64,000 nt of DNA from a bacterium. Its GTDB lineage: Bacteria; Bacteroidota; Bacteroidia; Bacteroidales; Bacteroidaceae. Each line of letters begins with the position of its first letter. The stretch's first letter is position 1. Positions 2,703-60,919 of this stretch are shown piece after piece. The notes under the pieces are model-generated. The model was not told the origin of the DNA. It did not search any database and was given only the letters and a program-made list of their open reading frames with translations. The stretch lies in the NCBI GenBank assembly GCA_963660485.1, contig CAVKYH010000006.1:522-64521 (forward strand), written 5' to 3'. The position numbers and the translations under genes were made by a program.

Positions 2703-5198
2703 ATGAAACTTCACATCATGATAGCAACGGCGGCATTCTTTTTCAGCCCGCTGTTTTCCCAAGCCCAACCTTTGGTGGAAATATCAGCCAAAGACGTAAA
2801 CCGCGCCAAGGAGTTGGTAGCCCAAATGACGCTCGACGAAAAAATATCACTGATCAGCGGAAACTCCGACGGCATGTCGCTGCGCGCCATACCGCGCCTG
2901 GGAATTCCTGCATTGCAGATGCACGACGGGCCACAGGGTATCGGACAAGGTATAAAGGGAGTATTCTTTCCCTGCGGCATGCTCACAGCCGCGACATGGG
3001 ACCGCAACATGGCGAAACTCGTGGGCGAAAGTCTGGCAACCGACTTCAAGGCCCACAACACCGATGTGATTCTCGGTCCGGGCGTAAACATTTACCGCGC
3101 CACGCTATGCGGCAGAAACTTTGAATACTTCGGCGAAGACCCTTACCTTGCAAGCGAAACGGCAAAGCAGTATATCATCGGGGTACAAAGCAAAGGTGTG
3201 ATTGCTACTATCAAACATTTTGCGGCAAACAACATGGAATGGGGACGAAACTATGTAAACTCAAACGTAGACCTCCGCACTCTGAACGAAATATATCTCG
3301 CAACTTTCCGAAAAGCTGTAAAAGAAGCCAAAGTGGGTGCCGTAATGGACAGCTACAACCTGCTCTACGGAATACACACCACCGAAAGCCGTTACCTTAA
3401 TATTGATTTGCTTAGAAAGGAATGGGGATTCAAGGGAATTGTCATGAGCGATTGGGGAGCCGTACATTCCACAGTGGCAACGGCCAACGGAGGGCTTGAT
3501 CTCGAGATGCCGACTTCGGAATACTGGAAAAACGAACTCGTAAAAGACGCAATGAGCAAGGGATTGGTTTCAGAAGCAACGATAAACGAGAAAGTGCAGC
3601 ACATACTGCAAACAATGAGCGCTTTCGGCGTGCTCGACAAAGATTCCACGAGAAACAACGAAAACTACGAGAAACAAAAACTCTCCGAGCTCAAAGCTGC
3701 GGCGCTCAAAATCGCAGAAAACGGAATCACCTTGCTTAAAAACGAAAACGACATACTGCCGCTGGGAAAACAAAAGTTCGTGGTGCTCGGACCAAATGCC
3801 GACAAAATAGCACGAGGCGGCGGAAGCGGACAAGTAAACTACTATTCCGCCGTTACGCCGTGGGAGGGAATTCGAAAGACATTCGGCAAACAAGCTACAT
3901 TGTTGGCTGACGGGGACTACAAGGCCGCATTGCCGAAAAATGCTTTCAAACCTGAGAAAAACTCCACGCAATATGGTTTCAAAGCCGAGTATTTCGGAAA
4001 CAAAACCCTCGGGGGCACGCCTATCGCTACGCGCATGGAGGAACAGCCATATATGGACAACAATACAAAACTGCCCGACGGATTGCAAACCACAGACTAT
4101 TCCGTGAGATGGACGGGCGTTTTTGAGGCACAGGAAACGGGCATCGTTTTCTTTGAACTCGCCGGAGACGACGGCTATCGGCTTTTCGTTGACAACAAAC
4201 AGGTTTGCGACGAATGGAGAGACCAGGCCACGAAAAAGACAACTTATTGCCTCGACGCCGAAAAGGGCAAAACCTACGACATAAGGGTGGAATATTACCA
4301 GGGAACGGGCGACAGAATTTTCAAGTTCGCTCCCTACGTAACCAACTACGCCAAAATGGACGCACAACTTCAGAATTTCAATACGGCAGTGGTATGCGTG
4401 GGATTTGATACCGACACCGAAACCGAAGGAAGCGACCGCACGTTCAATCTTCCCTTTGGCCAGGACGAACTTATAAAACATGTGGCGCAAAAGGTGGGGA
4501 ATGTTGTGGTTGTAATCAATTCTGGCGGCGGCATAGACTTCAAACCTTGGATTTATAAGGTAAAGGGCGTGATTATGTCGTGGTATCCGGGACAGGAAGG
4601 CGGAACTGCGCTTGCCAATATCCTTTGCGGAAAAGTTAATCCGAGCGGGAAACTGCCTATGTCGATAGAGAAAAAATGGGAAGACAATCCTGCGCACAAC
4701 GACTTCTACTCCTCAGGCGAATCAAACGAGATAACATACAACGAAGGTCTGTTCTACGGCTACCGAGGATACGAAAGAGAAGGAAAAAGCGTGATGTTCC
4801 CCTTCGGATTCGGCTTGAGCTACACCTCGTTTGCCTATTCCGACATCAAGACAGCAAACATCGGCAAAAACAGAGTGCGTATCACTTTCAAGGTAAGAAA
4901 CATGGGACAACGCGCAGGCGCTGAAGTGGCGCAGCTATACGTCAGGCCGCTCACGCCGTCGGTTGTGCGCCCTATAAAGGAGCTTAAAGGATACGAGAAA
5001 GTGTATCTTGAAAAAGGCGAAACCAAAACCGTTACAATAAATCTCTACGAAGACGCGTTTTCATACTACGACGTCAACACCGAAGGCTTTGTGGTAGATT
5101 CGGGAGACTATCAAATTCTCGTAGGGCCTTATTCCGACGACCTGCCGCTGCAAACCAACGTGAAAATAAACGCCCTGACAAGCGCAACAAGCAATTAA
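2703..5198 (+). CDS. GH3 beta-glucosidase with inserted PA14 domain, signal peptide
   Basis: 831 aa. N-terminal signal-like MKLHIMIATAAFFFSPLFSQA and GH3 blocks (GPGVNIYR, KHFAANN, VMSDWGA). A PA14-like segment follows (YFGNKTLGG..VRWTGVFEA..GDDGYRLFVDNKQV) and then the C-terminal GH3 domains. Confidence 0.9.
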   Translation: MKLHIMIATAAFFFSPLFSQAQPLVEISAKDVNRAKELVAQMTLDEKISLISGNSDGMSLRAIPRLGIPALQMHDGPQGIGQGIKGVFFPCGMLTAATWDRNMAKLVGESLATDFKAHNTDVILGPGVNIYRATLCGRNFEYFGEDPYLASETAKQYIIGVQSKGVIATIKHFAANNMEWGRNYVNSNVDLRTLNEIYLATFRKAVKEAKVGAVMDSYNLLYGIHTTESRYLNIDLLRKEWGFKGIVMSDWGAVHSTVATANGGLDLEMPTSEYWKNELVKDAMSKGLVSEATINEKVQHILQTMSAFGVLDKDSTRNNENYEKQKLSELKAAALKIAENGITLLKNENDILPLGKQKFVVLGPNADKIARGGGSGQVNYYSAVTPWEGIRKTFGKQATLLADGDYKAALPKNAFKPEKNSTQYGFKAEYFGNKTLGGTPIATRMEEQPYMDNNTKLPDGLQTTDYSVRWTGVFEAQETGIVFFELAGDDGYRLFVDNKQVCDEWRDQATKKTTYCLDAEKGKTYDIRVEYYQGTGDRIFKFAPYVTNYAKMDAQLQNFNTAVVCVGFDTDTETEGSDRTFNLPFGQDELIKHVAQKVGNVVVVINSGGGIDFKPWIYKVKGVIMSWYPGQEGGTALANILCGKVNPSGKLPMSIEKKWEDNPAHNDFYSSGESNEITYNEGLFYGYRGYEREGKSVMFPFGFGLSYTSFAYSDIKTANIGKNRVRITFKVRNMGQRAGAEVAQLYVRPLTPSVVRPIKELKGYEKVYLEKGETKTVTINLYEDAFSYYDVNTEGFVVDSGDYQILVGPYSDDLPLQTNVKINALTSATSN

Positions 5199-5535: not shown

Positions 5536-5653
5536 ATAAAAACGTTTTCGCATCTCGAAAAAACTACACGGCATCTCGTAAAAATTCCAAGGCATCTAAT
5601 TTAAATTCCGACGCATCTAATTCAAATTAGATGCGTCGGAATTTTCGCAAAAA
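5536..5653. repeat. 21-nt modular repeat, copy 2 (T-T-C-A-A')
   Basis: GCATCT at 5550, 5571, 5592 and 5613 (exact 21-nt phase). CCGACGCATCTAATTCAAATTAGATGCGTCGG is a 32-nt palindrome with one linker mismatch. Confidence 0.9.
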
Positions 5654-6106: not shown

Positions 6107-7354
6107 TTACAATTCTTCGACGTTAAAACCCACCGCGCGCAGGTCGTCCCAGTAACGGGGATAGGACTTGCACACCACTTCCGGGTTTTCGATGCGAATC
6201 TCCCCCGTCTTGATGCAAAGAGGAGCGATGCTCATTGCCATGCGATGGTCGTCGTAGGTTTTTATCACGGCATCTTTTTGCGCATCACAGCGTTCGCCGT
6301 CCCAATACATCGTGCCGTCGGGCAAATCTCTCACCACGTATCCCAGTTTTGCCAGTTCGGTTTCAAGAGCTGCGATGCGGTCGGTTTCCTTTACGCGAAG
6401 ATTTGAAAGCCCAGCAAACCTAAACCGTATTCCCAAGCCGCAGCACGTCGCCACAAAGGTTTGCGCCAAATCGGGCTCGCCGCCCAAATCAAGCTCCAAG
6501 GCATCTGTTTCAGCCCATTCGCCTTTGCAGATTTTCGCACTGCCGTTGGAAAACGAAGTTTCTACGCCAAGTTTCCGAAAATAATCCATTCCTTTTGAAT
6601 CTCCCTGCAAGCTGTTTTCATACAATGCAGGAAGCAGGAACGCGGAATGCGCATCTTGTGTCAACGCCATCAGTTCATACCAATACGACGCGGCACTCCA
6701 GTCGCTTTCCACCGTATATGGTTTTGCCGAATAGCCACCCTGCTCCACCGTTATCGTATCCACGGCGGTCCATTCGGCTTTCGCGCCAAACGACCTCATA
6801 AGTTCGAGCGTCATGTTGATATATGGGCGCGACGCAATGGTGCCGTTGAGCGTGAGACGAAGCCCGCCGTTCAAACAAGGGGCTATCATGAGCAAAGCAG
6901 ATATATATTGCGAACTTACGTCGGCAGGCAGAGAAATTTCGCCGCCGTGCATCGTGGCTCCGCCAACGCGAAGCGGAGGAAATCCGTCGGCTTTTGCGTA
7001 TTCGATGTCAGCCCCCAAATTGCGCAATGCCTCAACGAGTATCGTTATGGGGCGTTGCTGCATTCGCGCCGAGCCAGTGATTGTGCGCCGCAAGGGCTGC
7101 AAACTGAAATAAGCCGTGAGAAAACGCATCGCTGTGCCCGCGCCGTGAACATCAACCGGCATCTCGGCATTGTTTCCATTGGCAAGGGCAGCAATCATTA
7201 CCGCCGTGTCGTCGCACTCGGCGAGGTTGGAAATCTCTTGCGGCACACGCGAAAGCGCATTTATGACAAGCACACGATTCGAAAGGCTTTTGGAGGCCGG
7301 AAGAACCACTTTTTTTACACCGAAACCCTTTGGCGGAGTAAGTTTATAGATCAT
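6107..7354 (-). CDS. aroA: 3-phosphoshikimate 1-carboxyvinyltransferase (EPSP synthase)
   Basis: The track ORF runs to 7564, but its first 70 codons are antisense to the tRNA gene. The start is set at ATG 7354 (MIYKLTPPKG..). EPSPS blocks include LPASKSLSNR, GTAMRFL, KETDRI and DHRMAMS. Confidence 0.9.
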   Translation of the reverse strand: MIYKLTPPKGFGVKKVVLPASKSLSNRVLVINALSRVPQEISNLAECDDTAVMIAALANGNNAEMPVDVHGAGTAMRFLTAYFSLQPLRRTITGSARMQQRPITILVEALRNLGADIEYAKADGFPPLRVGGATMHGGEISLPADVSSQYISALLMIAPCLNGGLRLTLNGTIASRPYINMTLELMRSFGAKAEWTAVDTITVEQGGYSAKPYTVESDWSAASYWYELMALTQDAHSAFLLPALYENSLQGDSKGMDYFRKLGVETSFSNGSAKICKGEWAETDALELDLGGEPDLAQTFVATCCGLGIRFRFAGLSNLRVKETDRIAALETELAKLGYVVRDLPDGTMYWDGERCDAQKDAVIKTYDDHRMAMSIAPLCIKTGEIRIENPEVVCKSYPRYWDDLRAVGFNVEEL

Positions 7355-7381
7355 TTTCAAGCGTAATTTCGTTTTGTTCGG

Positions 7382-7389
7382 CAAAAATA
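7382..7389 (-). promoter_or_regulatory. candidate -7 box for aroA
   Basis: + strand caaaaata = TATTTTTG on the minus strand, 28 nt upstream of ATG 7354. Confidence 0.45.
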
Positions 7390-7423
7390 TTGATTTATTT
7401 TTTGATATGTCAGAAAAACGCCA

Positions 7424-7431
7424 TACATTTG
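7424..7431 (+). promoter_or_regulatory. candidate -7 box for tRNA-Pro
   Basis: TACATTTG, 64 nt upstream of the mature tRNA 5' end. Confidence 0.4.
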
Positions 7432-7494
7432 CACTCGCAAACGCGAAAAGGCCGCAAGGCGTGAAAACGTTCTCGGTCTTTACCCAAGCAAAAG

Positions 7495-7569
7495 CGGGGT
7501 GTAGCTCAGTCCGGTTAGAGTACACGTCTGGGGGGCGCGAGGTCGCTGGTTCGAATCCAGTCACCCCGA
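7495..7569 (+). tRNA. tRNA-Pro (anticodon GGG)
   Basis: 75-nt cloverleaf read by eye. Acceptor CGGGGTG/CACCCCG with discriminator A, D arm GCTC..GAGT, anticodon arm CACGT-CTGGGGG-GCGCG (one A.C mismatch), T arm GCTGG-TTCGAAT-CCAGT. No encoded CCA. Confidence 0.8.
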
Positions 7570-7616: not shown

Positions 7617-7685
7617 ACTCCCGTCAAAAGATTTCTTCCTACATATATTATCTTGTTGACACAGAATAAATTAAAAACAATGCAA

Positions 7686-7809
7686 GATATCGAAAAAACT
7701 CCAAGGCATATCGTAAAAACAATGTCTGACATTGTTTGAATAATGTCTGACATCGTTTAAATAATATCAGACATCGTTTGAATAATATCTGACATTGGAA
7801 AAACGATAT
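7686..7809. repeat. 21-nt modular repeat, copy 3 (C-like terminal unit + 4 E-type units)
   Basis: CCAAGGCATATCGTAAAAACA, then ATGTCTGACATTGTTTGAATA, ATGTCTGACATCGTTTAAATA, ATATCAGACATCGTTTGAATA and ATATCTGACATTGGAAAAACG. Confidence 0.85.
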
Positions 7810-7868
7810 TGGGAGAAGAAAAAACGGGACGAAAAATGCTGCAATTTTCAGCCGTCCGCAATGATTTT

Positions 7869-9857
7869 CTACCGCTTCGACTGCGCCTGACACTTCATTC
7901 CCTCTTGCTGATATGCCGAAAAGGGAAAAGTAAGACAGGCTGTGCCGTCCATAGTTGGCTCGTTGGTGGAATAGTCGTGGGTGCTGTCGTGATAAACCCG
8001 GTCGCCGGGCTGAAATTCCTCGTAATTGTTTCCCCCTTCTGTGCTTATGCCCAAAAGACTGTTGAAGATAGTGGAATAAACCGGCCCGTCAACCAATCCG
8101 CCAAGGGTGTTGCCGAGTTTGTATTTGATAATGAACGAATGGGGTTGGGTGGGGAAAACGCCGTGTTGCGGAAAACCTGCAATCATACTCACTCCCCACG
8201 GATTGCAACCGAGGAGCCAGTCGCGCAGAGCGCCTTCCATTTCTTCAAACTCCCTGTCGCCCGTGAGTTGGCGGTAGAGAATGCATTGGGTAAGCATTGC
8301 CGTGGTGAGATTGTTTGAGCACCAAATTCCGGGAATGCCGTAAAGAAATGGCGTGTGCCTTGCCTTTTCCCACGTGCGCATTATTCCCGAGCGCAGATTG
8401 CGCACAAACTCCGCCGCAAGGTTTTTGCCGCCTTCTTTGGCAAGCAGATAATGCCCCATGTTCATGAACGGATACCATTGGTAGTGTCTCGCGCTGTCGG
8501 CTCCCATCCAAGGCGTTACGGGCTCGCGCCGCGCATATTCCACAGCCTCTTTCATATAGTTTTCGTCGCCCGTCTGATGAAACAGTTCCATTGCCGCCAG
8601 TTCCATGTCGTCAGTCCAGTTGTCTTCCTCGTAGATGTAGGGCGACAAAACCGATGCCGTTTGACACACACCGGGTTTCGCCTTTCCGGTGAGGTATGCC
8701 GCGCGGGCTTTCGCGCCTATCTTTGCGGCGAAATCGGGATAAAACGGCGCGAGAACCTTTGAGCCGAGGGCAAAGTCGGACGCAAATTTCCCTGCCGTGC
8801 TTGCCACTCCCGTGGTGTTGTTTTTCAGTCCGTGTTTGCCGCGTTGTTGTGGTTCTCCCGAACAATACCAAACGGGACGATAACTGCCTTTGCCCCACCC
8901 GTAATCGGCTTTGTCGTCATGAGGCAGGCGCATGCCTATATGATCGCGGTCGTCGGCTATCTGGTTGTACATCTCGCCCGGCGCAGGATTCATCTTGTCG
9001 AGCCAAAGAAGCCCCCAATAAATTTCATCTACGATATCGGGAATCCCGTTAGCGCCTGGAGTTCCATCGGCTCTATGAGTGTCGCCAAACGATGTTGGGT
9101 TTTGTATATACGCAAACATCATCTGGTAGATTGCATTTGCGGAGGTGGTGGTATATTGCAGGCAATCGGACGCGTCATGCCAACCGCCGCGCACATCGAT
9201 GCGCGTGCTGTCTTTGCGGAGCGGTTTGCCGTCGGACGCAAGCCTTACACTGCCGTCGGGATTTATGGCATTGCAAAAACCTACTACCATTCCGTCGTAA
9301 ACATGACAACTGTCGCGCAAAAAAGGATTCCAGCCGCAGCGTTGTTGCCGCATATAGTTGAGCACAAAATCGGCTGCGCCGTTGTAAACATCGTTGGAAA
9401 TTTTGAAGCTTGGGGAAGCGGAAAAACGAGGTCTGACATAATTTAAATTCCGGGCCACCAAATTTAAATTAGATGCGTCGGAGTTTTTACGAGATGCCTT
9501 GTATTTTTTTCGCTCTTTGTTTTCTTTCAGAAAAACCCTTATATAATATTGTCCTTGTGCTTGGAAATCACTGAAATTCAGGCGTGCCGTTGTTTTCATT
9601 CGCCCCATTTCGCCGGTTTCAACTATATATGGTTTGTGCGCCGTGCCTTGTTTTTTGTTTTTCCCGGTATAGACCGCTTTTTGCGTGGCAGCGTCAACGA
9701 TTTCAAAGCGCACGATTTCGGCTTTTTCCTCGCTCATAAACACCGCCACCTTAGTTGCCGACGGCAGATAGCCGAGTAGGTTTATCCTAATCCACGAACC
9801 GGCACACGACATCTGAATTGCCATAGCCGAAAACAGTATGGTAAAAAAATATTTCAT
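7869..9857 (-). CDS. GH9 glycoside hydrolase with N-terminal Ig-like domain, carrying an in-frame repeat insertion
   Basis: 662 aa. Signal peptide, Ig-like N-domain (IRINLLGYLPSATKVAVF) and GH9 blocks (GGWHDASDCLQY, YHDSTHDYSTNEPTMDGTA). Residues about 108-146 (..KKYKASRKNSDASNLNLVARNLNYVRPRFS) are encoded by repeat copy 4. Confidence 0.85.
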   Translation of the reverse strand: MKYFFTILFSAMAIQMSCAGSWIRINLLGYLPSATKVAVFMSEEKAEIVRFEIVDAATQKAVYTGKNKKQGTAHKPYIVETGEMGRMKTTARLNFSDFQAQGQYYIRVFLKENKERKKYKASRKNSDASNLNLVARNLNYVRPRFSASPSFKISNDVYNGAADFVLNYMRQQRCGWNPFLRDSCHVYDGMVVGFCNAINPDGSVRLASDGKPLRKDSTRIDVRGGWHDASDCLQYTTTSANAIYQMMFAYIQNPTSFGDTHRADGTPGANGIPDIVDEIYWGLLWLDKMNPAPGEMYNQIADDRDHIGMRLPHDDKADYGWGKGSYRPVWYCSGEPQQRGKHGLKNNTTGVASTAGKFASDFALGSKVLAPFYPDFAAKIGAKARAAYLTGKAKPGVCQTASVLSPYIYEEDNWTDDMELAAMELFHQTGDENYMKEAVEYARREPVTPWMGADSARHYQWYPFMNMGHYLLAKEGGKNLAAEFVRNLRSGIMRTWEKARHTPFLYGIPGIWCSNNLTTAMLTQCILYRQLTGDREFEEMEGALRDWLLGCNPWGVSMIAGFPQHGVFPTQPHSFIIKYKLGNTLGGLVDGPVYSTIFNSLLGISTEGGNNYEEFQPGDRVYHDSTHDYSTNEPTMDGTACLTFPFSAYQQEGMKCQAQSKR
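9421..9512. repeat. 21-nt modular repeat, copy 4 (D/E-B-A'-T'), located inside the GH9 coding sequence
   Basis: GAAAAACGAGGTCTGACATAATTTAAATTCCGGGCCACCAAATTTAAATTAGATGCGTCGGAGTTTTTACGAGATGCCTTGTATTTTTTTCG. On the minus strand it reads in frame as ..KKYKASRKNSDASNLNLVARNLNYVRPRFS.. Confidence 0.9.
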
Positions 9858-9896: not shown

Positions 9897-12800
9897 CTAT
9901 TGTATGTCATACCATTCCGAGTCGTCATCGTCCTGGTTGTCGTTGTCGGGATAAGTATTCTCGTCATCGTTTTGCTGCTCTGCGTTCTCGTCGTCATCAT
10001 TTGCGTTGGAGGGCAAATCATCTTCCGACTGATATATGTCAACCTGCTTGTCGAGCTGAAGTTCTGGCTTAATCTTCAACGGAGCAAAGGTCTTGTCGTA
10101 GAATTTCAAGTAATCGGCAATGCTTATGTCCACTCCAAGTTTTTCCATATTGGCTTTTGATATCACGATGAGCTTTGCGTGGGCAAGATGTACGCGCATT
10201 GGTTTTTCGTTGTAGAGCAACTGTGCGTAGGAGTGCGCTTCGTCGAAACTATTGAAGCCTTTCACAATCATTTCGCCGAGACCTTCCTGCACCGTTTGTT
10301 CCATTTCGAAATTACGAACTGCGAAATTAGTGAAATTATACCGCGCCACGTCGTAAAGCAATTGGTTCTCGTCGACCGAATCTACGGGATAGGCAATAAT
10401 TACATTGAAATCGGTGTTGCGTTCCGGCGAAAGTTGTTTTGCAAGTTCTATGGAATCGAGCACAGCTGCGTCGCCTTTGCTACGACGTGTCCAGAGAGAG
10501 CCGAGATCATAGACGCCGGAGCCCGGAACACGCCCTTCTTTCAAACCTTTGAGCATCGACTGCGCAAGAGGAGTGATTTCGTTTTGAGGATAATCCTTCA
10601 CAACTTTTTCCAAACGCTCGCGGAACACATCGCGCCGCCCCTCGCCCAAATTTGAAAGCGCATCGAGGAAAAGGAACTTGGCGCGGTTTTCACCTTCGGG
10701 GTAACGTTCCTGCGAAACCTTGGCATTCTTCAAAACTTCTCCCGTGTTGCCGCTGCGGAAAGCGTTGTAGGTGGCAGCATATAGCGAATCCTCCATTTGT
10801 TTGCCGTATTTCGCGTCGAATTCAAAGTTCGGATCCGTAATCATCTTTGTCATCTTGTCGTCGGCATACTTTTGCACGAGCGCGTTCTTGTACAGCTGTG
10901 CAAGATCGTCGTGTCCCATTTGCGATTCGAGCAGGAACAGTTGATACAATACGTCGTTCATTTTTTCGTATTCCGGATAATCGGTGTAAACGCGCGTGAG
11001 AGTTTTTTCGGCAAGCGGCAGATTGTTCAGTTTATCTTTCTCAATTACTCCCGCCGCGTGCAGATTTTCCATAATCTTCTTGTTGCTTTCTGCAATTTGT
11101 TCGGGCGTGGAGGGAAGTTGTTTGAGATAATATTCGCGTGTCAGCTTTTCGTTGTCATTGTCTTTGTCGGCTTTTTTCTCTTTCTTGTCGTCTTTTTTCG
11201 CCGAAGCCGTATCGTTTGCCGCCTGTGCCTTGGAATCCACGGAATCCTTGTTTGCCACCGGTTTTTCGGCGGTTTCTTCGTCGCCCTCTCCCATGTCGTT
11301 TGGCGTAGAAAGCCCCTTGTCCGAACGGCGCCAGTTGTCAGCCAACTCACGTTCGCCCCATTGCCGCGCAAAAGCCTCCTTGCCGCTTGTTACTGCCTGC
11401 GGATTGTAAAAATACCAGGCTTTGCCGTCGCTTTGTTGGGTTTGTTGGGTTGTAGTTGAGGTATCGTTTTTTTTGTCTTGGTTCGACTGGTTTCTAACGC
11501 CCGTAGCGCCTTTATTTCCTGCGGCAGCGGCTTTTTTACGTTCCTCGCGCAGGCGTTTTTTCTCCATTTCGATTGCCTGGTCAAAGACTTTGTTTTGCTC
11601 CGTTGCCGGCATTTTTGCAAGAGCCTGCACACTGTCTTGCGCATATACCACGGCGGTATGCGGTTCTAGCTCTGAGATTATTTTGCTGCGCGTCTGTATG
11701 CTGTCGTAGTCCTTTCTTTCTTTGCTAATCATGCCGAGGGCTTTGCTGTAGCAGCGTTTGGCCGACGTGAAATCGTTGCGCGAATAATAGATGCTCGCGA
11801 GTTTCAAAAGCAGTGCGCCCTTCTCCACTCCGCTCCGCGTGGATTTTGAAACACCTTTCTCATAGGCTTCCACGGCTTTGTTGGTATCGTTTTGTGCAAG
11901 GAGAATGTTTCCGATTGCATAGTATATTTGGTCGCAATACTTCACGTTTTTCGATTTCTTGGCCATGCGGTTGAGGCGCGAAAGCATTGCCTTGCTTTTT
12001 CCTTTGCTCACAACTTCGGCTTGAAGCACACGGGCGTTGAGCTGTACTTCATAGGGCGGACTTTGTCGCACTACTTTCGAAAGGGACTTGTAGGCGAGTT
12101 TACGGTCGCCCTCAAGGTTGTAAATCTGTGCGAGAAGGAAATACAGTCGTGCCTTTGCCACTGCTCCTTTTGCGTGGCTGGCCATATCTTTTATGTAAGG
12201 CAACGCCTCTTTGTATTTCTGCTGGCGCGCATAATAGTCGGCATACGAAGCATTCAGGGCGTGGCGCGCCGAATGGGGCACACTGTCGCGTCCTATCTTG
12301 TTGCGGAAAATATCCTCGGCGTCGTAAAACCAATTGAGTTCGGAATAGCAGGTTGCAAGCCAGGCGCGGCTTTCGGCAAGTACGTCGGGCTCTGCCGCAT
12401 ATAGCCTGTTGATGTACGAGAATGTAGATGCCGCTTCAACGAATTCGCCTTTGTGGAATTGCGAAATGCCCATAAGCATCCATGCGTTCTTCAAAAACGG
12501 GTTGTATTCTCTTTTGGCGAGTTTTTGCTTTTGTTTCGGAGTGCGTTTGCGGGCGCGGTTTACTTTGGGCTTGCGTTTTATTGAATGGTTCTTGATTGCT
12601 TTTTCGCATTTCTCTATTGCCGTATTGAAATTGCTCTTTCCCAATTCGGCTGTGCTCTTGTTGCTCACCGCGAAAACGGGCAACATTTCGGTGTAGTTGT
12701 CTTTGTTTCCTTGGTTCTGCGCCAGAATACCCTCTTTGTAGGCTTCGTGTCCGTTGAAATAGGTATTGTATCTTGCGGTAAACGAATGATAGAAACGCGT

Positions 12801-12998: not shown

Positions 12999-13037
12999 AC
13001 TTTCAGCCGCATTCCAGGTGCTGAAAAAAGGGCATTT

Positions 13038-13136
13038 GATATCGTTTTTACGAGGTCAGACCTAATTTAAATTCCGGGCCACCAAATTTAAATTAGATGG
13101 CCCGGAGTTTTTGCGAGATGCCGTGTAGTTTTTCCG
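13038..13136. repeat. 21-nt modular repeat, copy 5 (D-B-B'variant-T')
   Basis: GATATCGTTTTTACG AGGTCAGACCTAATTTAAATT CCGGGCCACCAAATTTAAATT AGATGGCCCGGAGTTTTTGCG AGATGCCGTGTAGTTTTTCCG. Confidence 0.9.
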
Positions 13137-13379
13137 CATAGGCAAACGAGTGTTGTTTCTTGGGATTTCAATTTGTATTTCAAGCCGTTACGCAATTATT
13201 TCGGAGCATTCCGCATTTCCGCAGAAAGACGGGCTGCAAACGGCAACGTTTTCCAGTTTTTCAACGCCCATTATATCCGATATAAAGTTGGGCTTTTTAA
13301 TTTTATTGACAAACGAAGCCTTGAAATCAACTATTTTTATTTTCTTTGCAAAGCATAACTTACAAAAACCTACAACCAT

Positions 13380-15641: not shown

Positions 15642-15656
15642 CGCCCACCTCCTTTT

Positions 15657-15752
15657 TCGCAAAAAACTCCGACGCATCTAATTTAAATTAGATGCGTCGG
15701 AATTTAAATTTGGTGGCCCGGAGTTTTTACAAGATGCCTTGTCTGAAAAACG
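15657..15752. repeat. 21-nt modular repeat, copy 6 (A-A'-B'-T')
   Basis: Perfect 32-nt palindrome CCGACGCATCTAATTTAAATTAGATGCGTCGG at 15669..15700, followed by AATTTAAATT TGGTGGCCCGG AGTTTTTACA AGATGCCTTGT. Confidence 0.92.
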
Positions 15753-15769
15753 GTGTCAAATCTTGTATT

Positions 15770-25350: not shown

Positions 25351-25529
25351 CAAAGCAAAAACCATATAACCCAATGTTGACACGGTTTTTTAGGGGCGTC
25401 TTGAATTTTATGACTTAGTTTTTAGGAAAAAACGTGCCAGGACACGTGTAGGAAAGATTGATGCGCGCAGATTTTCTCCCTATTCTCCAACTACGAAAAT
25501 TGGCTCTCGAAAAGCCCGTTTTCTACCCC

Positions 25530-25618
25530 GAAAAAACTACACGGCATCTCGTAAAAACTCCAAGGCATCTAATTTAAATTCCGACGCATCTAATTTAAAT
25601 TAGGTCAGACCTCGTTTT
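25530..25618. repeat. 21-nt modular repeat, copy 9 (T-C-A-D)
   Basis: GAAAAAACT ACACGGCATCTCGTAAAAACT CCAAGGCATCTAATTTAAATT CCGACGCATCTAATTTAAATT AGGTCAGACCTCGTTTTGG. Confidence 0.9.
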
Positions 25619-25695
25619 GGGGGTATTTCCTGTTATTTTTCCTCCGTATGTTTCAAGGTGAAAATCAACGGATTCCTGCCAAAAGGAAAAGACAC

Positions 25696-33706: not shown

Positions 33707-33939
33707 CTCAAAATATTCGATACCCCATAACTACCGCCGCGTTTTTAACCTAATCTAACACCACTTTATATTTATCTCCACCCCACAACGCGCCAATCAT
33801 AATGTTTTTGGTATTCACGCCATGCAAATCCGCGCACACGGGAGCAGTTTTTCCGTCAGAAAAAACTGCAAAAACCACTCTTCACACATACTTTTTCATT
33901 CCCATTTCAGGCTAATTACAAACGCACAAATATTGCCCG

Positions 33940-34050
33940 AAAAAAGACATCGGATATCGGAAAAACGATGTCAGACATAATTTAAACGATGTCTGACATA
34001 ATTTAAATTACAAGGCATCTCGTAAAAACAAGATGCCTTGTAATTTTTCG
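33940..34050. repeat. 21-nt modular repeat, copy 10 (E'-E-T-T', chimeric)
   Basis: ..CGGATATCGGAAAAACG ATGTCAGACATAATTTAAACG ATGTCTGACATAATTTAAATT ACAAGGCATCTCGTAAAAACA AGATGCCTTGTAATTTTTCG. T and T' form a perfect 11-bp stem (34010..34041). Confidence 0.9.
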
Positions 34051-34150
34051 ATGCAAGCACAAGCGTTTCCGCAACAAGCCAACAATCTGTTTTACAAGCG
34101 TTTCTAAAAGTAACAGCACAAACCATGAAATCCACGGCAAAAGCATGAGC

Positions 34151-40808: not shown

Positions 40809-40865
40809 TCAAGAAGCCTTAAAACATATCCCCAAGCGCATATTTTTCACTCCATTCGCAGTGGG

Positions 40866-40956
40866 GAAAAAACTACACGGCATCTCGTAAAAATTCCGGG
40901 CCACCAAATTTAAATTCCGACGCATCTAATTTAAATTAGGTCTGACCTCGTAAAAA
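40866..40956. repeat. 21-nt modular repeat, copy 12 (T-B-A-D)
   Basis: GAAAAAACT ACACGGCATCTCGTAAAAATT CCGGGCCACCAAATTTAAATT CCGACGCATCTAATTTAAATT AGGTCTGACCTCGTAAAAAGC. Confidence 0.9.
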
Positions 40957-43936: not shown

Positions 43937-44356
43937 ATGGAAATCAAGATAACATCATTAGACAGCATCGAAACTGCAGCAAAGCAATTCGTAGCCCAAA
44001 TGGGCAACCGCAAGATATTCGCCTTTTACGGCAACATGGGAGCGGGCAAAACCACATTCATTCGCGCCATCTGCCGCGAACTCGGCGTTACCGAAGAAGT
44101 AACATCGCCCTCGTTCGCAATAGTAAACGAATACCGCAGCGAGACAACAGGTGCAAGTTTTTTCCATTTCGATTTCTATCGCATAAAGAAGATTGAAGAA
44201 GTTTACGACCTGGGTTACGAAGATTACTTCTACGGCGGCGGAGTAAACTTCATTGAATGGCCGGAACTGATAGAAGACCTCCTGCCCGAAGAAACCGTGA
44301 AAGTATCTATCACAGAAGACATTGACGGAACAAGAACCGTAACGGTTGACGCCTGA
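43937..44356 (+). CDS. tsaE: tRNA threonylcarbamoyladenosine biosynthesis ATPase TsaE
   Basis: Start set at ATG 43937 (MEIKITSLDS..). P-loop YGNMGAGKTTF and the SPSFAIVNEY block. Confidence 0.85.
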   Translation: MEIKITSLDSIETAAKQFVAQMGNRKIFAFYGNMGAGKTTFIRAICRELGVTEEVTSPSFAIVNEYRSETTGASFFHFDFYRIKKIEEVYDLGYEDYFYGGGVNFIEWPELIEDLLPEETVKVSITEDIDGTRTVTVDA

Positions 44357-44365
44357 AACATTGCC

Positions 44366-44480
44366 GAAAAAACTACAAGGCATCTCGTAAAAACTCCGAC
44401 GCATCTAATTTAAATTAGATGCGTCGGAATTTAAATTTGGTGGCCCGGAGTTTTTATGGCATGCCGCATCGTTTTTAAAA
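44366..44480. repeat. 21-nt modular repeat, copy 13 (T-A-A'-B'-degenerate T')
   Basis: GAAAAAACT ACAAGGCATCTCGTAAAAACT, then the perfect 32-nt palindrome CCGACGCATCTAATTTAAATTAGATGCGTCGG at 44396..44427, then AATTTAAATT TGGTGGCCCGG AGTTTTTATG GCATGCCGCATCGTTTTTAAAA. Starts 10 nt after the tsaE stop. Confidence 0.92.
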
Positions 44481-48195: not shown

Positions 48196-48334
48196 CATTT
48201 GCCGAGTGATTTTTTGCACGCCTTATTTATATGTCTCCGCAAACCGAAACGGAAATCTTTTTCCGCATGTTTGAAGTATTTTCCCGCTTGTCTGAAGCCC
48301 CATTCCGCGAGCCAAAAACCATGCTGCGCAGGGC

Positions 48335-48428
48335 GAAAAAACTCCGGGCCACCAAATTTAAATTAGATGCGTCGGAATTTAAATTCCGGGCCTTGGAGTT
48401 TTTACGAGATGCCTTGTAGTTTTTAAAA
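48335..48428. repeat. 21-nt modular repeat, copy 15 (B-A'-hybrid-T')
   Basis: GAAAAAACT CCGGGCCACCAAATTTAAATT AGATGCGTCGGAATTTAAATT CCGGGCCTTGGAGTTTTTACG AGATGCCTTGTAGTTTTTAAAA. Confidence 0.9.
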
Positions 48429-48510
48429 CAAAAATCCGGTGAAAGTATTTCAAGCATCTACACTTTCACCGGACCGTTATAATTCCGGAAAATTCGGCAT
48501 CAGAGCCGAA
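48427..48510 (-). terminator. two tandem terminator hairpins after ssb
   Basis: Minus strand: TTCGGC-TCTGAT-GCCGAA + TTTTCC (48487-48510), then a perfect 11-bp stem CCGGTGAAAGT/ACTTTCACCGG (48436-48472) followed by ATTTTTGTTT. Confidence 0.6.
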
Positions 48511-50781: not shown

Positions 50782-50868
50782 CGAAGAATTATTCATTCGG
50801 CAAGTTAGCAAAACTTAAAGTTAATGTAGCAAGCCTATTGCGGGCTATTTTTTGCAACACGCGATGGC

Positions 50869-50980
50869 GCAAAAACGATGTCTGACATCGGGAAATACGA
50901 GGTCAGACCTAATTTAAATTAGATGCGTCGGAATTTAAATTTGGTGGCCCGGAGTTTTTACGAGATGCCTTGTAGTTTTC
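50869..50980. repeat. 21-nt modular repeat, copy 16 (E-D-A'-B'-T', chimeric)
   Basis: GCAAAAACG ATGTCTGACATCGGGAAATACG AGGTCAGACCTAATTTAAATT AGATGCGTCGGAATTTAAATT TGGTGGCCCGGAGTTTTTACG AGATGCCTTGTAGTTTTC. Confidence 0.9.
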
Positions 50981-51041
50981 GGCATGTCAAAACAAGGGAT
51001 TTCGGGGACGGGAAACGCTCCGCCAACAAGCCGGAAAATTC

Positions 51042-52259
51042 TCAGGAAACGCTTGGCGAAGGTATTTGCCGGCGGCGATATTCCGACGGAGTAACGCCGA
51101 AGCGTTTTTTGAAAGCCTTGCTCATTGCCGGAAGTTCCAGATAGCCCGAACTGAAAGCTATCTCGCTTATTTTTCTATCGGTATTGGATATCTGTTCTGC
51201 GCAATGCAGCAGTTTTTTCTCGCACACCCACGCCGCGAAAGTAGTGTTGAGTTCCTTATAAATGTATTCGCTCAAATCGGCACGCGTTACTCCGAGCGCG
51301 TCGGCTATTTCCTCGATGTTGTTGTTGCTCTTGAATATTGGATTGTTCTCTTCTGAAGCGAGCAAAACGTTTACCTTTTCGAATATCTCGGCAAAGATTC
51401 GTCTCTCTTTCTCAAAAGAAAGTACTTCCTTGATATATCGGTCGTATATAAAGTTGGAACGGACAATTACCACGATTAACAAAGCGCGGGATATCACATG
51501 AAAGGGCAACGACGTGGTGAAATAAGACATCATCATAAGGGTGAGCGTTGTAATATATGCGCACACGCTTATAGTTTCGGCTATCTGTTGCGGACGGGCA
51601 CGGTATTCGCTGCTTTCATATCGGGTTTGGAAACGACTGTAAATGTAAGCCTCTCCCACCATTACCAGCATAATCAGCCAAAGCGATATCATGGCCAAAA
51701 GAAGAAAGATACGGCCATAAACAAGAAAGCTGTGATCGGGCGAAAGGAAGTCGGAAAGGCAACTCATCGGCTCGTAAAAACCCGTTAAGCGGCACACTAT
51801 GCTCACAACAAACAATATCAGCCCGTATTGTCCTATCAAAAACCAGATAAAAATGTTCTTGTAATATTCTCTGCCGAAATAGGCAGATGTCATAACCATG
51901 AAAACCGCCGAAGCAAAGTAGTGGGCGCAGATAGGAATGGAGCAAGCCACCTCGATTCCCCCGTAGGAAAATATCAGAGGCGACATTCCTACTTCTGCAA
52001 TCATTATGATATAAAAAGCAACAAACGACCGGCGACGCAGCTGAAAATCCCTGTCAACAAGCTTGCGCCCCTTGACAATCAATTTCACTGCCATCAATAC
52101 AAGAACAAGCAGCAAAACCGTGTTGACTGCATAAAAAACATTTGTAAGCATCGTCGCAAATCGGTAATCCACTTGCAAATATAACAAAAAAAGTGTCCGG
52201 AAAAAGAATTCCCGGACACATAACCACCATGGCTTTACAATTAATGTAACAACAACCAT
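51042..52259 (-). CDS. membrane-anchored AraC-family transcriptional regulator (about 7 TM helices + C-terminal HTH)
   Basis: 405 aa. The N-terminal ~290 aa hold about seven hydrophobic helices. The C-terminal AraC HTH is IEEIADALGVTRADLSEYI..ISEIAFSSGYLELPAMSKAFKKRFGVTPSEYRR. The start may instead be the internal Met37 (52151). Confidence 0.75.
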   Translation of the reverse strand: MVVVTLIVKPWWLCVREFFFRTLFLLYLQVDYRFATMLTNVFYAVNTVLLLVLVLMAVKLIVKGRKLVDRDFQLRRRSFVAFYIIMIAEVGMSPLIFSYGGIEVACSIPICAHYFASAVFMVMTSAYFGREYYKNIFIWFLIGQYGLILFVVSIVCRLTGFYEPMSCLSDFLSPDHSFLVYGRIFLLLAMISLWLIMLVMVGEAYIYSRFQTRYESSEYRARPQQIAETISVCAYITTLTLMMMSYFTTSLPFHVISRALLIVVIVRSNFIYDRYIKEVLSFEKERRIFAEIFEKVNVLLASEENNPIFKSNNNIEEIADALGVTRADLSEYIYKELNTTFAAWVCEKKLLHCAEQISNTDRKISEIAFSSGYLELPAMSKAFKKRFGVTPSEYRRRQIPSPSVS

Positions 52260-60828: not shown

Positions 60829-60919
60829 GAAAACGACAAGGCATTTCGTTTAAATTACAAGCCATATTGTTTAAATTATGTCTGACATTGTTTTCGCGAT
60901 ATCCGACATTGCAAAAACA
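60829..60919. repeat. 21-nt modular repeat, copy 18 (degenerate, chimeric)
   Basis: GAAAACG ACAAGGCATTTCGTTTAAATT ACAAGCCATATTGTTTAAATT ATGTCTGACATTGTTTTCGCG ATATCCGACATTGCAAAAACA. Confidence 0.8.

Follow-up and report, generated by a model that had tools for sequence, protein, structure and literature searches.

An in-frame copy of a 21-nt modular repeat inside the Ig-like domain of a Bacteroidaceae GH9 glycoside hydrolase gene

The DNA analyzed here (the window) is a 64-kb stretch from a Bacteroidaceae genome (GenBank assembly GCA_963660485.1, contig CAVKYH010000006.1, positions 522 to 64,521 of the forward strand). It contains a gene for a secreted glycoside hydrolase of family 9 (GH9) into which a copy of an interspersed repeat is inserted in frame. 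The repeat family occupies 19 loci in the window; 18/19 are intergenic, whether the neighboring genes are divergent, convergent, or tandem, and the GH9 copy is the only one inside a coding sequence (CDS). A preliminary description, made from the sequence alone, had reported a single 662-amino-acid (aa) open reading frame (ORF) running through a repeat copy at 9421–9512. That ORF is present, and those limits lie within a few bases of the core that we delimit at 9426–9511. The features needed below are as follows, in window coordinates; no strand is assigned to the intergenic copies, and the letters K, A, C′, and D denote 21-nt units of the repeat.

7869–9857 (−): host gene, a 662-aa secreted GH9 glycoside hydrolase with a signal-like helix (recognized by eye), a CelD_N immunoglobulin-like (Ig-like) domain, and a GH9 catalytic domain; the ORF is intact
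9528–9554 (−): beta-strand of residues 102–110 (..GQYYIRVFL), before the insert; from the AlphaFold 2 (AF2) model and DSSP, predicted local distance difference test (pLDDT) ~97
9426–9518 (−): net insertion relative to orthologues, 31 codons, K114–R144 (KERKKYKASRKNSDASNLNLVARNLNYVRPR), net charge ~+8
9426–9511 (−): core of the repeat copy, subclass "K-x-x-D", four 21-nt units plus 2 nt (86 nt), common to four other copies
9491–9511 (−): unit K, GAAAAAAA-TACAAGGCATCTC, read (R)KKYKAS(R)
9470–9490 (−): unit A, GTAAAAAC-TCCGACGCATCTA, read (R)KNSDAS; duplicated or varied in the 669-aa alleles L001 and L003
9449–9469 (−): unit C′, ATTTAAAT-TTGGTGGCCCGGA, read NLNLVAR
9426–9448 (−): unit D, ATTTAAAT-TATGTCAGACCTCGT, read NLNYVRPR; TAT here against the stop TAG in four intergenic K-x-x-D copies
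9399–9425 (−): last Ig-like strand, residues 145–153 (FSASPSFKI), after the insert; AF2/DSSP strand at 145–147 and 151–153, with S148 and F151 invariant in homologues
13023–13144: closest intergenic copy, in the interval between a TPR gene and an alpha-galactosidase gene; RNA folding z −3.7 to −5
25509–25640: intergenic K-x-x-D copy
40861–40951: intergenic K-x-x-D copy
50867–50990: intergenic K-x-x-D copy with one extra unit
7671–7818: intergenic copy with ATGTCWGACAT units, directly downstream of the GH9 stop; the orthologous copies of L001 and L002 differ in unit content
5536–5650: intergenic copy whose L083 orthologue is the likely donor of a 49-nt conversion tract (below)

The host gene has the features of a complete GH9 enzyme. 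Both domains recognized in the preliminary description exceed Pfam gathering scores: CelD_N matches residues 20–108 (4e-19, 69.5 bits against a cut-off of 24.6) and Glyco_hydro_9 matches residues 158–644 (1.5e-63, 216 bits against a cut-off of 27.7). The motifs GGWHDASDCLQY and TNEPTMDG, described earlier as intact, are present, and their Asp/Glu columns are invariant across an alignment of 36 homologues. These columns include D228/D231 in GGWHDASD and E633 in TNEPTMDG, which we take to be the GH9 catalytic residues (the DAxD pair and the Glu of NEP/NEV, respectively). AlphaFold predicts an (alpha/alpha)6 barrel with an Ig-like beta-sandwich, and the best Foldseek matches to the model are the Ig+GH9 structures 3x17, 6dht (BoGH9A), and 1clc (CelD), at probability 1.00 and TM-scores of 0.74–0.80 on the target. 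The model used was built from a 54-sequence alignment that included diverse representatives (mean pLDDT 90.9, predicted TM-score 0.91); an earlier run on 36 near-identical sequences gave pLDDT 45 and was discarded.

The segment inside the gene matches the intergenic repeats unit for unit. Positions 9426–9513 are 90% identical to intergenic positions 13050–13137 across 88 nt, and a 19-mer taken from the in-gene copy has 15 matches in the window (≤3 mismatches) against 0.03 expected. The copy aligns end to end, over 86 nt, with 25530–25615, 40867–40952, 13045–13130 (reverse complement), and 50893–50978 (reverse complement). Similarity among these five K-x-x-D copies halts sharply, at GAAAAAAC... 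on one side and at ...GACCTCGT on the other. We found neither a target duplication nor a terminal inverted repeat in the five aligned copies, and the two K-x-x-D ends, GAAAAAACTACAAGGCATCTCG (start) and AGGTCWGACCTCGT (end), are not complementary; some other copies of the family bear K or K′ at both ends.

Homologous proteins identify the same segment as an insertion. Between the anchor residues Y104 and S148 the window protein has 43 residues and P0001 has 50, against 8–13 in the 84 homologues of two alignments, apart from a single homologue with 22. In the nearest homologues outside the lineage (~70% identical, 837–909 aa, with an extra C-terminal PF01522 domain) the region reads YYIKV-LSSGGETR-SEIFPIN, where the window protein reads YYIRV-FLKEN KERKKYKASRKNSDASNLNLVARNLNYVRPR FSA-SPSFKISN. 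In a HMMER search of 1.84 billion representative proteins nearly all full-length homologues match in two stretches, the second of which begins at query residues 138–153, with the alignments breaking at ~110–146. The element had first been credited with residues ~108–146; the place was right, and the extra codons are the narrower set K114–R144 (9426–9518).

The preliminary description put the insert between two strands of the Ig-like domain, outside the catalytic core, and the predicted structure agrees, with strands at 102–110 and 145–153 on either side. These flanking strands (102–110, 145–147, and 151–153) form blocks of pLDDT 97–98, and confidence drops to 72, 56, and 43 through residues 111–144, which are modeled as a tentative helix (114–126) followed by coil. 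In the model, the insert thus departs from the turn that joins the last two Ig-like strands and is presumably solvent-exposed. Since this turn is length-variable and presumably exposed, the enzyme would have tolerated the addition. A PDB sequence search was also tried for placing the loop, and its matches were too distant. The inserted protein is predicted to yield the junction-spanning tryptic peptides NSDASNLNLVAR and YVRPR-FSASPSFK.

The repeat family has a strict modular architecture. Every copy consists of 4–7 units of exactly 21 nt, each a 7–8-nt A/T tract followed by a GC-richer core of 12–13 nt. By autocorrelation, lag 21 has nine segments, whereas lags 19, 20, 22, and 23 have none. 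Tracts show a polarity across each copy, A-tracts (GAAAAAAC, GTAAAAAC) giving way via ATTTAAAT to T-tracts (GTTTTTAC, GTTTTTTC). A limited set of sequences, appearing in either orientation, supplies the cores (CCGACGCATCT/AGATGCGTCGG, CCAAGGCATCT, CCGGGCCACCA/TGGTGGCCCGG, GGTCWGACC, ATGTCWGACAT, and ACAAGGCATCTCG). In all 19 loci the A/T tracts are phased at 21 nt, that is, two helical turns (e.g., 15650–15760, 44345–44480, and 33933–34060), a layout from which one would expect intrinsically curved DNA or a phased array of protein-binding sites.

Copies are dense and overwhelmingly intergenic. There is approximately one per 3.5–5 kb, and almost all intergenic regions of >200 nt in the window hold one; ~600–900 would be expected in a complete genome of the lineage. 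An automatic census of ~165 kb of lineage DNA recovered 34 copies, and a long ORF traverses the GH9 copy only (~1/34). A BLAST search of the element-masked window found no further element-derived DNA inside genes. Given that the window is ~90% coding, copies in CDS are in strong deficit, for which the cause could be selection or targeting. A periodicity detector also flagged A/T-phased coding stretches at 3935–4005 (a GH3 gene) and 11469–11560 (the TPR gene), which have no significant similarity to the family and are taken as chance; the TPR-gene stretch encodes a K/E/R-rich linker.

Among the sampled sequences, words of the family are confined to the window, L001, L003, and L083–L094. The more divergent relative L002, whose GH9 protein is 91% identical, carries partly different cores, and Bacteroidales loci with a GH9 that is 58–69% identical are without the family. 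An Rfam scan gave no match to the element (tRNA only), and no transposase was found among the genes scanned in ~165 kb of lineage DNA. A protein search with the insert peptide returned 45–121-aa spurious ORFs alone, and did not recover GH9 itself, the positive control.

Predicted RNA folding separates subclasses of the family. Many intergenic copies have folding z-scores of −4 to −11, with hairpins where a unit meets its own inverse across ATTTAAAT, and the subclass in which all units are direct folds weakly. The in-gene copy gives z-scores of 0.02 (126 nt) and −1.2 (110 nt), and the other in-gene alleles give −0.9 to −2.2. We considered whether this weak hairpin is a sign of selection on the mRNA, which is unsupported: the intergenic K-x-x-D copies at 40861, 20351, and 25509 fold equally weakly. 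The outermost K′ unit ends ...CCTTGTAG and is followed by a T-tract (48398–48423, 50954–50979, and 13106–13131). GTAG is also the tetranucleotide tag of the repetitive extragenic palindromic sequences (REPs) cleaved by RAYT transposases. Where outermost units show CTAC, the in-gene copy (9491–9511) has ATAC, and the alleles of L002 and L003 have CAAC.

Translation through the insert follows the repeat's own periodicity. In the gene's frame, translation of the A/T tracts gives K-N or N-L-N, and that of the cores gives S-D-A-S, L-V-A-R, and the like. The 7-codon unit and the N-L-N frame noted previously are real. The same type of peptide is encoded, as had been observed, by ORFs 48227–48457 (−) and 50923–51144 (+), which contain NYKASRKNSKARNLNSDASNLNLVARSFF and MRRNLNLVARSF, respectively. 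The further claim that the AAT-TTA-AAT frame is stop-free holds for the spacer ATTTAAAT, which has one open frame on each strand, and fails for whole copies: inverted units introduce TAG, and just 8/114 copy-by-frame combinations (19 copies) are free of stops. When read in the frame of the gene, each of the four intergenic K-x-x-D copies contains exactly one stop, the TAG of AAT-TAG-GTC. At that position the window allele has TAT and the other in-gene alleles have TAC.

Comparisons among close relatives show that the host protein is under strong purifying selection and that the insert is nearly free in sequence. Outside the insert, the ratio of nonsynonymous to synonymous divergence (dN/dS) is 0.075 between the window and L001 (97% aa identity; dS 0.20), 0.073 between the window and L002 (91% aa identity; dS 0.51), and 0.060 between L001 and L002 (dS 0.62); the corresponding values for the insert are 0.35, 0.78, and 0.67. 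Behind the host-gene ratios stand 150–170 synonymous differences, and by region dN/dS is 0.12–0.18 for the Ig-like domain and 0.05–0.06 for the catalytic domain over the three comparisons. As three sequenced relatives all carry the insert, the insertion predates their split. The same insertion, at the same codon and with collinear flanks, is found in ~20 sequences from independent NCBI and ENA assemblies. We distinguish six alleles of the insert:

window type: K-A-C′-D, 662 aa
L001: K-A*-A-C′-D, 669 aa
L003: K-A-A*-C′-D, 669 aa
L085: K-A-C′-D on an L001 background, 662 aa
L083/L084: K-A*-A′(inverted)-D, 662 aa
L002 cluster: ATATCGGAC / GATAACCGATAT cores, 662 aa

All six are in frame and stop-free, and they differ by whole 21-nt (7-codon) units. 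The suggestion that the insertion is tolerated is consistent with both results, low host-gene dN/dS (0.06–0.075) since the insertion and retention of the frame in all six alleles. The L002 allele encodes an unrelated peptide, KACKNNKAYQKNNIGPFLNDNRYYLKNIGHC. In L083, a 49-nt in-gene tract (AAAACTCCGCCGCATCTAATTTTTACGAGATGCGTCGGAATTTAAATTA, 6371–6419) is identical to part of an intergenic copy 3.8 kb downstream (10191–10239), and the junction sequence that it carries has no other occurrence in the sampled lineage DNA. The simplest reading of these sequences is ectopic gene conversion between family copies. Orthologous intergenic copies undergo the same kind of unit turnover, and the in-gene copy therefore behaves as any other while also having to stay open.

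These observations make us confident that an old insertion, stop-free by virtue of its frame and of chance, lies in a tolerant, length-variable turn of the enzyme, where it persists as a passenger whose whole-unit changes are neutral to the frame. A copy of ~86–93 nt of the lineage-specific repeat entered the codons of the turn between the last two CelD_N strands. In its orientation and frame the copy is stop-free, leaving the gene open and adding a basic, low-complexity loop of 31 residues. As the sampled relatives diverged, purifying selection preserved the remainder of the protein and kept the insert open, purging stop-bearing variants. The insert itself has kept evolving in the manner of intergenic copies, through gain, loss, and swap of units and through gene conversion. 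Since a unit is exactly seven codons, whole-unit changes never shift the frame. We regard the insert as most likely a tolerated passenger and not an adaptation. The protein is probably made and active, and the copy probably arrived by the process that spread the family.

Several points weigh against this explanation. An allele with an empty site was not found in ~20 close relatives: the 20 listed cluster members are all 662 or 669 aa, with none of ~630 aa. The genome-contig collection held one close species (L003, with the site filled), its other homologues being at most 69% identical, and scans of JGI metagenomes with a lineage-specific 31-mer and a repeat 21-mer were without any match, the lineage being absent there. 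The ends given for the insertion are accordingly approximate, and the absence of a target duplication is provisional. The length of the core, 86 nt, is not divisible by three, and the 93-nt net gain requires seven extra bases, possibly bases of terminal A/T tracts or flanking codons that were reshaped. It follows that the in-frame status was not automatic at first insertion; it became so only for whole-unit gains and losses that came later. The TAG may have been repaired to TAT or TAC after insertion, or TAT/TAC may have belonged to the inserted copy, as ATGTCAGAC-type units exist elsewhere (e.g., 33991–34009). Translation and activity of the protein are inferred, as are the exposure of the loop and its distance from the active site.

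An alternative that we consider improbable is that the insert has been co-opted as a useful, deliberately variable surface loop, for example one binding substrate or the cell surface through its +8 charge or serving evasion of phage or antibodies, and diversified in 7-residue steps by conversion from hundreds of intergenic copies. The six alleles that differ by whole units among close relatives, one with a clear conversion tract, would fit, as would retention of the insert through dS ~0.5–0.6 with no empty allele seen, and the strongly basic peptide of the window-type alleles. However, insert dN/dS of 0.35–0.78 indicates relaxed and not positive selection, and the unrelated L002 peptide KACKNNKAYQKNNIGPFLNDNRYYLKNIGHC means that nothing is conserved beyond openness. 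The variation is also the normal behavior of the family, as orthologous intergenic copies turn over their units in the same way. Further, the insert has no ordered structure in the AF2 model, and one gene is affected in 165 kb. Slightly less probable again is a stronger version, in which the 21-nt element is an undescribed class whose single open frame makes it an in-frame loop cassette, the GH9 loop being kept variable by conversion and diversified in heptapeptide steps.

It is very unlikely that the GH9 copy is an assembly artefact, a repeat mis-joined into the contig, or that the gene is a still-open pseudogene. Abundant repeats are a classical cause of short-read misassembly, and this family, at a copy every 3.5–5 kb, is very abundant. 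Against an artefact stand the ~20 sequences from independent assemblies and samples, and against a pseudogene stand the low host-gene dN/dS, measured over 150–170 synonymous differences, the invariant catalytic motifs, and a model that is confident outside the insert. Finally, a native loop expansion with chance low-complexity likeness, or a repeat family derived from the GH9 gene, can practically be set aside, since, although loop length does vary among homologues (22 residues in one), the 86 nt match four intergenic copies unit for unit (90% identity to one; 15 19-mer matches against 0.03 expected), the segment is missing from all homologues outside the lineage, and the other ~30 copies are intergenic with unrelated flanks.

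Preservation of a passenger repeat in a functional gene has parallels in several systems. The preliminary description drew an analogy with Rickettsia palindromic elements (RPEs), for which in-frame insertions in protein-coding genes have been described (Ogata et al. 2000, as summarized in PMC10969869); according to the same source, nearly half of the copies of some RPE families sit in ORFs. The analogy holds for the outcome, an in-frame passenger peptide: in both cases a short interspersed repeat of non-coding type lies in frame in a conserved gene, the added peptide sits where the fold can accommodate it, and the host gene is under selection. It does not extend to membership or frequency. The GH9 element comes from another phylum, its host being placed in Bacteroidales by gene content, with no sequence relationship shown, and whereas RPEs are palindromes of ~100–150 bp, the GH9 copy is non-palindromic (z −1.2 to 0) and built of 21-nt units. 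Approximately 1/34 copies lie in CDS, against nearly half for some RPE families, and RPE peptides are conserved within a family while the GH9 alleles encode different peptides.

REPs and bacterial interspersed mosaic elements (BIMEs) are also very abundant, mostly extragenic, and arranged as mosaic clusters in both orientations, with occasional intragenic copies that add residues; intragenic GTAG/CGTC REP clusters encode 43–82 aa (Di Nocera et al. 2013, PMC3733652). Target duplication is not evident in either, and both tetranucleotides recur in our family, GTAG at the end of the K′ unit and CGTC within the A unit. However, a REP unit is a 20–40-nt hairpin (stem 5–13 bp, loop 2–20 nt) with the GTAG/CGTC tag unpaired at one end (PMC3733652). 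Here GTAG (K′) and CGTC (A′) are present but fall inside pairing segments, and hairpins form only where a unit meets its inverse, so that the tag geometry is ambiguous. The strict 21-nt period with phased A/T tracts is a further difference, and that survey did not report GTAG REPs from Bacteroidetes (PMC3733652).

We found no description of a Bacteroidales element of this kind in full-text literature searches. The nearest is the minisatellite-MITE BrickBuilt of Porphyromonas gingivalis, which has 23-nt direct bricks, a leader and tail with inverted-repeat ends, and 19 exclusively intergenic copies per genome (Klein et al. 2015, PMC4596501). Both occur in Bacteroidales, are built from short bricks in tandem, each roughly two helical turns long, at many intergenic sites, and vary in brick number between copies or strains. 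By contrast, the family described here has 21-nt units in both orientations, lacks a leader and tail, is ~10–40 times denser, and has one copy in a gene. [quoted passage not shown] The GH9 case thus works like RPE, REP, and MITE insertions and does not appear to belong to any of them, and its likeness to REPs/BIMEs is one of mosaicism and extragenic bias only.

In-frame survival of selfish repeats is known from Rickettsia and from REP-rich proteobacteria, and for gut Bacteroidales the literature searches returned no description. The present case, resolved to an unusual degree by sequence comparison, shows how a repeat built of whole-codon units persists and keeps changing inside a gene. It also identifies a site in the GH9 Ig-like domain that accepts 31–38 extra residues and may serve loop engineering. 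The larger question raised by the window is the repeat family itself, with its phased A/T tracts, mosaic cores, and a copy every 3.5–5 kb.

The GH9 gene of this lineage differs from its homologues in other respects. Homologues at ~66–73% identity (P0003–P0120) all fuse a C-terminal polysaccharide deacetylase domain (PF01522, ~200 aa) to GH9. The GH9 of the sampled lineage ends directly after the catalytic domain, with the repeat copy at 7671–7818 and a tRNA gene next; the PF01522 domain was lost by, or never gained in, this lineage's GH9. A separate PF01522 gene is present in the lineage (L090:13546–14490). Relative to the ~70% orthologues there are two more lineage-specific insertions, of 9 residues (residues ~66–80; 9620–9670) and 16 residues (residues ~194–214; 9215–9280). 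A weak repeat match between 9244–9280 and 60882–60918 had hinted at an element origin for the second; a repeat origin was rejected for both, as BLAST of the element-masked window against all copies returned only chance-level 12–14-mers.

The tRNA gene (7495–7569, +; Rfam, 54 bits) lies between the GH9 gene and an EPSP synthase gene. In the mechanically called ORF 6107–7564 (−), the first ~60 residues are reverse-translated tRNA and its surroundings, and not EPSP synthase. In L089 (10128–12583) and L094 (1–2197), a GH127-like gene appears as two adjacent ORFs with a 4-nt overlap, of 450 aa without Pfam matches and 368 aa with matches to the GH127 middle domain, and a repeat copy lies past the downstream stop. 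Several "cleanbin" metagenome-assembled genome (MAG) records with a Bacteroidales-type GH9 (L003, L007, L057, and L081) are titled Christensenellaceae, Eggerthellaceae, Agathobacter rectalis, or Oscillospiraceae, and the taxonomic labels of such records look unreliable. Finally, a Bacteroides sp. MAG carries a different 21-nt-periodic array with palindromic units (ACATCTCGCGTGCTGAGAT...; L065:17625–17730), a hint of a possibly wider distribution of 21-nt modular repeats in Bacteroidales.

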